From Alkalispirochaeta sp. (GTDB lineage Bacteria > Spirochaetota > Spirochaetia > DSM-27196 > Alkalispirochaetaceae), in contig OZ271854.1 in the NCBI GenBank assembly GCA_965601925.1, positions 3,232,001 through 3,296,000 on the forward strand: DNA of 64,000 nucleotides, read 5' to 3'. The notes under the pieces are model-generated. The model was not told where the DNA came from, made no database searches, and worked only from the letters and a program-made list of their open reading frames with translations. Shown here piece after piece: positions 15,292-18,578 of the stretch (position 1 is the first letter of the stretch; each line of letters starts with the position of its first letter). Position numbers and translations under genes: made by a program.

Positions 15292-16460
15292 GCTCACTCA
15301 TTCAATTCTTCAGAAGTAACATTCGGCAGAACGGCATGGTCATGGCTCTGGTCTTCATCATGGTGCTGTTTCAGATACTGACCCGAGGAATTCTCTTCCG
15401 TCCGATGAACATTACCAACCTCGTGCTCCAGAACAGCTACATCTTGATTCTTGCAATCGGCATGCTTCTGTGTATTCTCACCGGTAACATCGACCTTTCG
15501 GTCGGATCGGTCGTCGCCTTCGTCGGCGCGGTCGCGGCGGTGATGATGGTCAACATGGATATCGGTGTCGCTCCGACGATAGTCGTATCACTTGCGATCG
15601 GCATCGTCGTCGGGATGTTTCACGGCGCGTTTATCGCGTTTGCCCGCATTCCGGCCTTCATCGTCACGCTTGCGGGAATGTTGATTTTTCGCGGCCTCAC
15701 CCTCGTGATTCTCAAGGGCCAAACGATCGGTCCCTTTGAGCGATCCTTCCAAAGCATCGCCGCCGGCTACCTTCCGGGGCGCGAGATCGAGATCGCGGGA
15801 TACAACGTAGTAGCTCTCGTCGTCGGAGTTGTGCTGTCGGTGTATTTCGTCATTGCGCTCCTCATGAGTCGCGCCGGTAAGGCGCGCTACGGATTCGATG
15901 TTCCGCCGGTCGGTATCGAGATCGCCCGTATCGTCTTCATCGTCGCTGCGATAAACGTGTTGACGCTGAGTTTGGCGGCGCATAACGGCATTCCGATCAT
16001 CTTGGTCCTGCTCTCGGCACTCATTCTGCTCTATACCTTCATCACCCGTAAGACTGTGTTCGGGCGTCATATCTATGCGTTGGGTGGAAATGAGAAGGCG
16101 GCGCGGCTCTCGGGCGTCAAAACGCAGAGGGTCATGTTTCTGGTCTACACCAATATGGGACTCTTGGCCGCGTTGGCGGGATTAGTCGTCGCGGGACGAC
16201 TCAACGCAGCCACGCCCAAGGCGGGCACGATGTTCGAGCTCGACGCGATCGCCGCCGCGTTCATCGGTGGTGCGTCCGCCTCGGGCGGTATCGGAACGGT
16301 CGTCGGCGCCGTCGTCGGCGGCCTGGTCATGGGTGTGCTCAACAACGGGATGTCCATCATGGGCGTAAGCGTCGATTGGCAGCAGGCGATAAAAGGGCTC
16401 GTACTCCTTGCCGCCGTCAGCTTCGATGTCTACACGAAAAACAAGGCCCACACCTCCTAA
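15288..16460 (+). CDS. mmsB: Multiple monosaccharide ABC transporter permease (MmsB/GguB)
   Basis: [44 protein letters not shown] and ELDAIAA motifs. Confidence 0.93.
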
Positions 16461-16527
16461 CCGACGACGTAGGCGTTCGACCGGAAATCGGTGGTCCTTC
16501 GAGCACCGAATGTAGTACCCTTGTCGC

Positions 16528-16704
16528 ATGAAGACGAATATGCTCGATACGAGCCGGCGTCGTACGGATCGGCGGCCGGTGCCCATCGGCGTGCGCACAG
16601 TTCAAGCCGCGTCGCGCATTCCCGATGGTCGTCAAACCCGTGCACGTACCCTTTCCCGTATCCTTCCCGTCTCCTCTCCCTGTCTTTGCCTCTGCTGTTG
16701 TTGA
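16528..16704 (+). CDS. Candidate cysteine-rich leader peptide (58 aa) of cysE-cysK
   Basis: Hand translation: MKTNMLDTSRRRTDRRPVPIGVRTVQAASRIPDGRQTRARTLSRILPVSSPCLCLCCC-stop. Five Cys codons fall in the last seven and none elsewhere; it ends 90 nt before cysE. Confidence 0.75.
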   Translation: MKTNMLDTSRRRTDRRPVPIGVRTVQAASRIPDGRQTRARTLSRILPVSSPCLCLCCC

Positions 16705-16794
16705 ACCTGCTCGCCAACTCCTAATTGTGGGCCTCGAAAACGGTACGCATCGTTCTCGGGGCAACGAGTCTCATAGTACGAAGGATGTACCGTC

Positions 16795-17640
16795 ATGAAG
16801 AACATCACAACACTTATCGACGATTTGCAGGAGAGTCATCGCAATCCGAGCCGCGGCCTCCCGTCTCGACGGGGCACTGCACAGTTTTTGGACGAATTGT
16901 TGGCGCTCCTCTTTCCACATTTCGCCTACGACGAACGCTACGGCTCATCCGAGGAGATTGCCGCCGCATTCATTCGTATCGAGCGACGCCTGCACCACCT
17001 CCTCGCTCCGCTGGAGGACCGCATGGAGCTGACATCGGAGGAGGGCGCGAGGGCGTTTTTGGACCATCTGCCGGCGGTGTATACGCTCCTGCAGGAAGAT
17101 GCGGCGGCGATCTACAACGGTGATCCCGCCGCCGAGTCGGTCGACGAGGTCGTTGCCGCCTATCCCGGCTTTTTCGCTATTGCGGCGTACCGCGTCGCGC
17201 ACTGCTTTTATCGCTCCGGCGTACCGGTCTTTCCGCGCATCATCACCGAGTACGCGCATCTGCGTACCGGGGTCGACATTCATCCCGGCGCCGAAATCGG
17301 GCGCGCCTTTTTCATCGACCACGCCACGGGCATCGTCATCGGCGAGACGACCAGGATCGGCAACCACGTGAAGATCTACCAAGGCGTCACGCTGGGGGCG
17401 TTGAGTGTCTCCAAAGAGATGCACAGCACCAAGCGCCACCCCACCATTGAGGATCGCGTTATCGTCTACTCGAACGCGACGATTCTCGGCGGCGACACGG
17501 TCGTGGGGCACGACAGTGTCATCGGCGGCAACTCGTGGGTCACCTCCAGCATCGAGCCGTACTCGGTTGTGTACAACCGCGCGGAGGTGCGTGTGCGCAA
17601 TACGCGCTCCTCGGACCATGAAATAATGTTTCACATCTAA
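16795..17640 (+). CDS. cysE: Serine O-acetyltransferase (CysE/EpsC type)
   Basis: [38 protein letters not shown] and KRHPT motifs. Confidence 0.95.
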
Positions 17641-17663: not shown

Positions 17664-18578
17664 ATGAAGATCGATACCATGTTAGAGGCGATCGGAAATA
17701 CGCCGCACCTCAGACTTAATCACCTCTACGACGAGCGGCACGAGGTATGGATGAAACTCGAACGTTCCAACCCCGGTGGGAGTATCAAGGATCGTATCGC
17801 CCTCTCGATGGTCGAGGCGGCCGAGCGCGACGGGCTCCTCTCGCCGGGTGGAACGATTATAGAGCCCACCTCGGGCAATACCGGCGTCGGCCTCGCGCTC
17901 GTTGGAGCGGTAAAGGGGTATCGGGTAATCCTGGTAATGCCCGAGTCGATGTCGATGGAGCGTCGACGGCTCATGGCGGTCTACGGCGCCGATTTCGAAC
18001 TCACACCCCGGGGCGAGGGCATGAAAGGGGCGATTCGTCGAGCCGAGGAGCTGACCGTCGAGCTCGACGGAGCGTGGATGCCCATGCAGTTCGCCAACCC
18101 CGCCAATCCCGCGATACACGAGGAGCGTACCGCCGCCGAAATCGCGGAGGATTTTCCCGACGGGCTGGACTACCTCATAACCGGCGTCGGAACCGGCGGG
18201 CACATCACCGGCGTCGCACGGCGGTTGAAAACGCTCTGGCCCGATGTGCGCGTTATCGCCGTGGAGCCGGCCGACTCGCCGGTGCTCAGCGGCGGTGAGC
18301 CGGCGAGCCACGCCATTCAGGGTATCGGCGCCGGCTTCATCCCCGAGGTCATGGATCAATCGCTTCTCGACGGAGTGGCGACGGTTACCAAAGCTGAGGC
18401 GTTCGAGTACGCCCGTCGCGCCGCCCGCGAAGAGGGAGCGCTCGTCGGCATTAGTTCCGGTGCGTCCCTGGCCGCAGTCGCCAAGAGGCTGGCGAACGAG
18501 ACCGAGCCGCGGCGCGTGCTGACCTTTTGCTACGATACCGGAGAGCGTTATCTCTCGATGGAAGACTTTTACATGTAG
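17664..18578 (+). CDS. cysK: Cysteine synthase A
   Basis: NPGGSIKDR (PLP lysine), [22 protein letters not shown] and DTGERYLS motifs. Confidence 0.96.

Follow-up and report, generated by a model that had tools for sequence, protein, structure and literature searches.

The cysE-cysK genes of the spirochaete genome studied here are preceded by a short open reading frame (ORF) that ends in a run of cysteine codons. This leader likely senses cysteine and belongs to a known kind; the phylum is new for it and its layout unusual. The reading that we tentatively prefer is that ribosomes stalled on these codons hide a pyrimidine-rich tract that is otherwise predicted to fold over the cysE start. In its joint form, put forward with the same reserve, start-site pairing would act first and Rho would likely complete the shut-off. 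Start-site pairing is given precedence because the homologous leader of a second genome of the same genus (G002), as judged from its predicted folding, and a proven mycobacterial case work in this way. That stalled ribosomes mask the tract is likely, and is common to this reading and to the other leading one, in which Rho acts first.

The leader ORF and its genomic context

The genome (G000), a single contig of 5.05 Mb with a completeness of 96.7%, is that of a spirochaete according to three FlaA matches above cut-off. In the window, i.e. the whole stretch of 64,000 nucleotides analysed, whose first letter is position 1, the leader region sits between gguB, which ends at 16460 and is part of a sugar ABC operon (chvE-gguA-gguB), and cysE-cysK. 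Its coding and start features are as follows:

16512-16521 (hexamer 16516-16521), + strand: likely -10 element GTAG-TACCCT, 6 nt upstream of the leader ATG
16528-16704, + strand: leader ORF of 58 amino acids, unannotated, ending in P-C-L-C-L-C-C-C-stop, with five Cys among the last seven codons
16678-16701, + strand: Cys codons C52, C54 and C56-C58, likely sites of ribosome stalling, the first two preceded by CCC and CUU
16625-16798, + strand: +1 frame, without a stop from the Cys codons up to a UGA overlapping the cysE AUG (AUGA)
16776-16797, + strand: cysE Shine-Dalgarno sequence (SD, GAAGGA) and start codon, read in the sequence
16795-17640, + strand: cysE, serine O-acetyltransferase of the Bacteroidota-like long type (NF041874 above cut-off; TIGR01172 E 9e-50, below cut-off)
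17664-18578, + strand: cysK, cysteine synthase A (TIGR01139 above cut-off)

The cysE start is supported by homologues that align with the protein from residue 1. The leader ORF gave no family match; three of its Cys codons are consecutive (C56-C57-C58), giving at least two adjacent ones, in addition to C52 and C54. Transcription of the sugar operon could possibly read through into the leader. A hairpin without a U tract (16488-16509) lies 3' of gguB, directly upstream of the -10 box.

The spacing of this box would fit a leaderless promoter. The arrangement GTAGTACYCT-N6-ATG is found directly 5' of cysE in six of the 12 closest cysE homologues (L002-L007), all of them devoid of a leader. Genome-wide, TANNNT at the 6-nt spacing precedes 155 of 4392 5'-proximal ATGs and 22 of 5759 internal ones, a roughly ninefold enrichment by counts that rest on crude ORF calls, and it lies 5-7 nt before an early ATG in 343 of 3405 crude long ORFs; by these sequence patterns, leaderless genes look common in G000. 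Among its 27 Cys-dense short ORFs (ATG start, at least four Cys within eight residues), the leader ORF alone has a -10 element at leaderless spacing, and no full sigma70 site was found at the leader. The leader mRNA is probably itself leaderless, its transcription starting at the leader ATG.

Two short sequences recur in the region: CATGAAGA at 16527-16534 (leader start) and again at 16794-16801 (cysE start), and GTACCCTT at 16515-16522 (-10 box) and again at 16646-16653 (tract start). A deletion between the copies of CATGAAGA would yield the leaderless-cysE layout of L002-L007. Elsewhere in the genome (G000:C1:4835085), a six-codon ORF, MSCVCP, shows leaderless spacing 88 nt before a gene resembling hisS; it may be due to chance.

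G000 also carries a probable leaderless trp attenuator (G000:C1:2536396-2536560, locus L253), in which a leader of 23 codons with a GTG start, the ending FQWWWAV and the same promoter type is followed by long hairpins, a textbook intrinsic terminator and a trpE-like gene. Leader peptides are thus in use in this genome, and the absence of a terminator from the cysE leader is a real difference.

The Cys codons would also allow a quite different mechanism, making the leader a starvation-triggered frameshift coupler and not a folding switch. A +1 shift at a hungry codon, at CCC-UGU or CUU-UGC, would bring ribosomes to the UGA overlapping the cysE AUG and let them restart on cysE; in G002, the same slip would enter the cysE frame directly. 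CUU-U is the shift site of prfB. CCC-UGU occurs in both leaders, whose open +1 frames end at the cysE start or enter it, and CCC before a slow codon is described as shift-prone (PMC3082878). However, the +1 frame is open in 31% of spacer shuffles for G000, hence not significant alone, and in 52% for G002, each Cys codon begins with U and a pyrimidine-rich context promotes CCC and CUU, no stimulator was seen, and pheL shifts at 15% with no regulatory role (PMC3082878). We regard frameshifting as very unlikely. Past its UGA, the leader frame itself (16702-16777) reads TCSPTPNC..., with two further Cys codons and a UAG just 5' of the cysE SD. Decoding of the UGA as selenocysteine was discarded, the genome giving no selA match, a selB match below cut-off and no tRNA-Sec among 51 tRNAs.

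The pyrimidine-rich tract and the predicted folds

Between the -10 box and cysE, the RNA has three further features, which include elements of the original prediction: a helix (a) between the tract and the cysE SD, a spacer hairpin (b), an alternative pairing (c) of the inner part of that hairpin with the SD-to-start interval, and a C-rich tract resembling a Rho utilisation site. All four are present where they had been placed.

16639-16661, + strand: predicted anti-start block, pairing with 16776-16797 (SD and AUG) in the nascent rod and containing the start of helix (a)
16650-16727 (core 16650-16695), + strand: C/U-rich, G-poor, weakly structured stretch straddling the Cys codons, similar to a Rho loading site
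16725-16767, + strand: hairpin (b), lacking a U tract, z -4.43, predicted ON-state fold and possible pause hairpin

The strong bias claimed for 16650-16695 holds (40 of 46 pyrimidines, 22 C against 5 G): six tracts as pyrimidine-rich exist on both strands of the 5.05-Mb genome, and the leader tract provides the highest 40-nt pyrimidine window among 202 candidate leaderless short-ORF regions. An 11-nt tandem repeat lies inside the core (16653-16674). The longer stretch 16650-16727 (31 C, 11 G) belongs to the top 0.05% of 78-nt windows by C/G and ranks 19th among 2111 upstream regions, and its minimum free energy (MFE) is -4.1 kcal/mol against -22.7 +/- 6.1 in random windows, one of 1500 being equally weak. 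With its excess of C over G and its weak structure across the stall site, it has the form of the ~80-nt stretch that is a trait of Rho attenuators controlled by upstream ORFs (uORFs). The original prediction was also right that no hairpin plus U-tract terminator exists here, as none was detected in 16300-16900 nor by a second scan.

These properties feed the other leading reading, in which the tract (here 16630-16727) would be a Rho loading site in and just past the leader ORF. A ribosome stalled in the middle of the site would block Rho; once it is gone, transcription would terminate around hairpin (b), with the cysE start not yet transcribed, and SD pairing would be incidental. The extreme composition and weak structure over ~80-100 nt, longer and more C-rich than an anti-SD requires, argue for it, as do the two ranks given above, the presence of rho in G000 (TIGR00767, 707 bits, above cut-off) and in 21 of 22 family genomes, and the lack of an intrinsic terminator although the trp leader of G000 has one. 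There are precedents in cruR (PMC9426467) and in tnaC and speFL (PMC12360218), and Rho has been proposed for actinobacterial cys leaders (PMC1262725). On the other hand, the G002 leader is not Rho-site-like (C/G 1.4, MFE -16), the stretch is just 0.5-0.6 unpaired in nascent RNA without ribosomes, the same composition would result from Cys, Pro, Ser and Leu codons together with an anti-SD block, and the rules for Rho sites derive from other phyla. Rho acting first is a possibility to be taken seriously, if an unlikely one.

In the start-site pairing that we prefer, the tract would act by folding. Ribosome-free RNA with its 3' end at 16800-16822 is predicted to form a single rod (16639-16797), in which 16639-16653 pair with SD and AUG, CCCTG with CGGGG, and the last three Cys codons with AACGGTA, at probabilities of 0.42-0.84; for the anti-start block, these values apply to RNAs ending at 16800-16815 and are lost at 16830 or beyond. 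Masking ribosome footprints, the check proposed for the original prediction, gave a divided answer: the SD opens in RNAs ending at 16800-16822, but there is no switch, or a reversed one, at 16830-16900. For the shorter RNAs, opening the SD costs 2.1-4.6 kcal/mol without ribosomes, 1.2-2.9 with a ribosome at C52, 0.8-1.4 with queued ribosomes and 2.2-4.2 with a ribosome at C58 or the stop, the masked stretch being modelled as a free loop, which probably understates the cost of pairing across the ribosome. For the longer ones it costs 0.9-1.0 kcal/mol without ribosomes; a single ribosome on C54-C58 raises this to as much as 2.9, since helix (a) forms behind it.

Over 16630-16808, a queue lowers the opening cost of the ribosome-binding site from 12.1 to 5.2, and an equal drop occurs in six of 460 SD-led genes (out of 803) compared under the same mask; a single ribosome at C52 has an ordinary effect, matched by 55 of the 460. 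The queue effect is equalled in 13% of 208 tract shuffles and 6.5% of tract-plus-spacer shuffles and is hence mostly a matter of composition, and the stability of the rod does not exceed that of shuffles, 24% and 23% of which fold as well. In a context of 120+36 nt, the cysE start is more open than that of 71% of 150 sampled SD-led genes. The folding switch modelled for G000 is thus fragile, confined to short nascent RNAs.

Helix (a) is exact in sequence, ATCCTTC (16660-16666) being the reverse complement of GAAGGAT (16780-16786), but its occurrence is near chance and it plays a minor part in the fold. Of 1000 shuffled leaders, 19.5% contain a complement of at least 7 nt to 16776-16797, the figure being 5.4% if only the tract is shuffled; two such sites, as (a) and (c) provide, arise in 1.3%. 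In ribosome-free RNA, (a) has a probability of 0.00-0.34 that varies with the 3' end, and it forms more often (0.5-0.8) with a single ribosome at C54-C58, the opposite of what a starvation switch needs. In these models, it is a minor register of the longer anti-start block (16639-16661 with 16776-16797).

Hairpin (b), drawn at 16731-16762, is real and extends to about 16725-16767, with -19.6 kcal/mol (z -4.4) and a stability reached by 0 of 200 and 1 of 1000 shuffles. Its predicted probability is 0.87-0.99 with one ribosome on the Cys codons and 0.2-0.3 in ribosome-free RNA ending at 16800-16815, making it the fold expected with a ribosome on the Cys codons, i.e. in the ON state. Helix (c) survives in part: ACGGTAC and GTACCGT pair exactly, whereas the pairing of CATCGTTC with GAAGGATG contains a G-G mismatch and uses G16787, which is also part of the first helix. 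In the form drawn, (c) has -12.6 kcal/mol against -17.7 for (b), a difference of ~5 kcal/mol in favour of the hairpin. In ribosome-free RNA, the ACGGTAC helix has a probability of at most 0.19 at 37 C and of 0.49 at 50 C, and with two ribosomes masked at C52 it has 0.36; for the CATCGTTC helix the probability is 0.00. Folding 16725-16810 in isolation is the one setting in which the MFE structure is of the (c) type (-25.1 kcal/mol), and in the models (c) is a minor state unconnected with the ribosome footprint.

The local switch first proposed, with (b) and (c) alternating in the spacer and (c) shutting the start site, can draw on that isolated fold, on the value at 50 C and on the rarity of two complementary sites among shuffles. 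It is opposed by the low probability of (c) at 37 C in ribosome-free RNA, by its rise (to 0.36) in one starved state, by the reach of a ribosome at the stop, which extends to ~16716-16719, short of both folds, by the completion of (b) before the SD is transcribed, and by the G002 leader, in which no counterpart of (b) or (c) was found; we give it hardly any weight. The broader claim that the output is SD sequestration and/or Rho-dependent termination and not classical attenuation stands, given the missing intrinsic terminator, and composition favours its Rho half well, but the helices chosen for it, (a) and (c), were mostly the wrong ones. Two further candidate structures were discarded: a long 5' hairpin (16555-16648) with a stability no better than shuffles (z -0.02), and a helix between 16645-16654 and 16738-16747 that reaches 0.4-0.6 only if the RNA ends at 16748 and has disappeared at 16764.

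Under the preferred reading, events at the locus would run as follows. Transcription would begin at the leader ATG. With ample Cys-tRNA, the ribosome would complete the leader and depart and, as the cysE start emerges, the 16639-16797 rod would form, laying the tract over SD and AUG and pairing the Cys codons with the arms of hairpin (b), so that cysE would stay untranslated; the shut-off would probably be completed by Rho, for which this C-rich RNA would also be the loading site. With scarce Cys-tRNA, a ribosome would stall at C52-C56 with a second one queued behind it, an assumption of the model, and ~16633-16711 would be covered; hairpin (b) would then replace the rod, the start site would open and cysE-cysK would be expressed.

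Leaders at other cysE loci

Among the spirochaete cysE loci L001-L030, two were left out as short; of the 28 with 300 nt or more of upstream sequence, two have Cys leaders, those of G000 and G002; G019 has cysE-cysK but no leader. The G002 leader (L012 1175-1306, minus strand) has 43 codons, stands before cysE-cysK and overruns the cysE SD and start out of frame. It shares the general plan (TATTTT-N6-ATG, a pyrimidine stretch, CCCCPCQCC), no terminator was found at it, and the gene upstream is divergent. For each of the six 3' ends tried, SD opening costs 5.2-7.5 in ribosome-free RNA versus 2.5-5.1 once C18-C20 carry a ribosome, and the start site is more closed than in 93% of 150 sampled G000 genes. 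The translational switch predicted for G002 is robust, and cleaner than that of G000.

The two leaders cannot be aligned base by base, and their peptides, as far as two sequences can tell, have little in common beyond Cys, with no conserved arrest peptide. G000 reads TGC TGT TGT TGA ACC TGC where G002 reads TGC TGT TGT TGT CCC TGT, i.e. UGA at the fourth Cys codon of G002; a 12-nt match between the two leaders is in part what Cys codons would give anyway and argues only weakly for a common origin. The UGA also invites another view, that the G000 leader is degenerate or weakly regulatory, a Cys codon having turned into UGA and the tract having grown by repeat, with near-constitutive expression; the tract might then instead end read-through from chvE-gguA-gguB. 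Besides the UGA, this view is favoured by the 26 of 28 spirochaete cysE loci that lack a leader, including the cysE-cysK of G019, by the hairpin after gguB without a U tract and by the fragility of the folding switch. However, the frame is intact, with five Cys codons and a leaderless spacing unique among the 27 Cys-dense short ORFs, and G002 has kept its leader beside a divergent upstream gene, where read-through explains nothing. We judge a degenerate or weakly regulatory leader improbable.

Further searches returned no other spirochaete leader. A DNA search with the leader in 99 genomes of the order gave, besides itself, four matches of 22-51 nt and no homologue, hence no covariation analysis; cysE and cysK searches (401 class and 401 phylum genomes, respectively) gave no new leader-bearing locus, and no leader was seen in 29 cysK loci examined nor in L138. 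An Rfam search returned a lone low-complexity lncRNA match (E 4.5). Sequenced DNA contigs identical to the leader come from one sample, maybe the source of G000 itself, and are hence not independent. In the cysE tree (41 chosen rows), the clade of this family lies among Bacteroidota-like CysE, and the branches of G000, G002 and the leaderless clade do not separate, so that gain and loss of the leader cannot be told apart. The gene preceding cysE in most relatives encodes a leucyl/phenylalanyl-tRNA protein transferase (PF03588; L008 895-1455), and cysE does not lead cysK there, an order judged by eye in L003-L007, L009 and L010. Titles and abstracts found by a literature search, with subscription journals outside its coverage, describe no Cys leader in spirochaetes; comparative attenuation surveys by Lyubetsky's group may include such cases.

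Outside the spirochaete search, 155 further cysE loci (160 fetched minus five too short) gave Cys leaders in five of 43 with a cysK-type neighbour, in none of 91 with a cysM-type one and in three of 21 with no neighbour in view; an antisense control gave none in the 155. These eight leader loci represent about four lineages, two lying on one contig and several being close kin, and the named ones are Bacteroidota. L061, L064, L066, L071 (same contig as L147), L078, L081 and L146 carry, in the 230 nt upstream of cysE, leaders of 24-29 codons with 3-7 Cys codons. A hairpin plus T run follows the leader in all eight, and by this sequence signature the Bacteroidota cysE(-cysK) leaders with hairpin plus U tract are classical Cys attenuators. 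One cysE family shows three layouts: Bacteroidota have an intrinsic terminator, start-site pairing is predicted for G002, and the long tract of G000 could serve pairing and Rho alike. The G000/G002 pair offers a compact test of whether an anti-SD tract can become a Rho loading site.

Comparison with known systems

The closest parallel is the mycobacterial polycysteine leaderless small ORFs, Ms5788A, for which the mechanism is proven, and Rv2334A, which precedes cysK1-cysE (bioRxiv 10.1101/834739). As in the Ms5788A type, the G000 leader is probably a leaderless first ORF with a C-terminal Cys run, upstream of cysteine-synthesis genes and devoid of an intrinsic terminator, and its Cys codons are predicted to lie in the fold that closes the start of the next gene. 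Unlike that type, it belongs to a spirochaete, the gene order is cysE-cysK, the leader has 58 codons with Leu between the Cys, and the block pairing with the start is 20-40 nt 5' of the first Cys codon, where one ribosome would cover it poorly.

With Bordetella cruR (PMC9426467) and with tnaC and speFL of E. coli (PMC12360218; PMC6386406), the G000 leader shares a stretch of C>G composition and weak structure that overlaps the stall site and lies within the ORF as in cruR, a downstream hairpin and the lack of an intrinsic terminator. Those systems use an arrest peptide and a ligand, whereas in G000 the signal would be a shortage of Cys-tRNA and the role of Rho is a predicted one; the spacer of G000, at just 90 nt, also sets it apart from these uORF-controlled attenuators. 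Actinobacterial cys/cbs leaders predicted to use Rho similarly combine Cys codons near the stop, no terminator and poly-pyrimidine motifs (PMC1262725), but there the motifs lie between the leader and the first gene, whereas the G000 core is inside the ORF, 5' of the Cys codons. The Rho version of a cysteine leader has been a prediction since 2005 (PMC1262725). Classical attenuators, such as the cysS uORF of Rhodobacterales (PMC8632094) and the Bacteroidota cysE-cysK leaders, resemble G000 in having successive cognate codons within a short ORF 5' of the genes; a hairpin plus U tract closes them, and neither spirochaete leader has one. The locus carries ribosome-based cysteine sensing, experimentally shown in mycobacteria, to the spirochaetes, where it is likely at work in an unusual layout.
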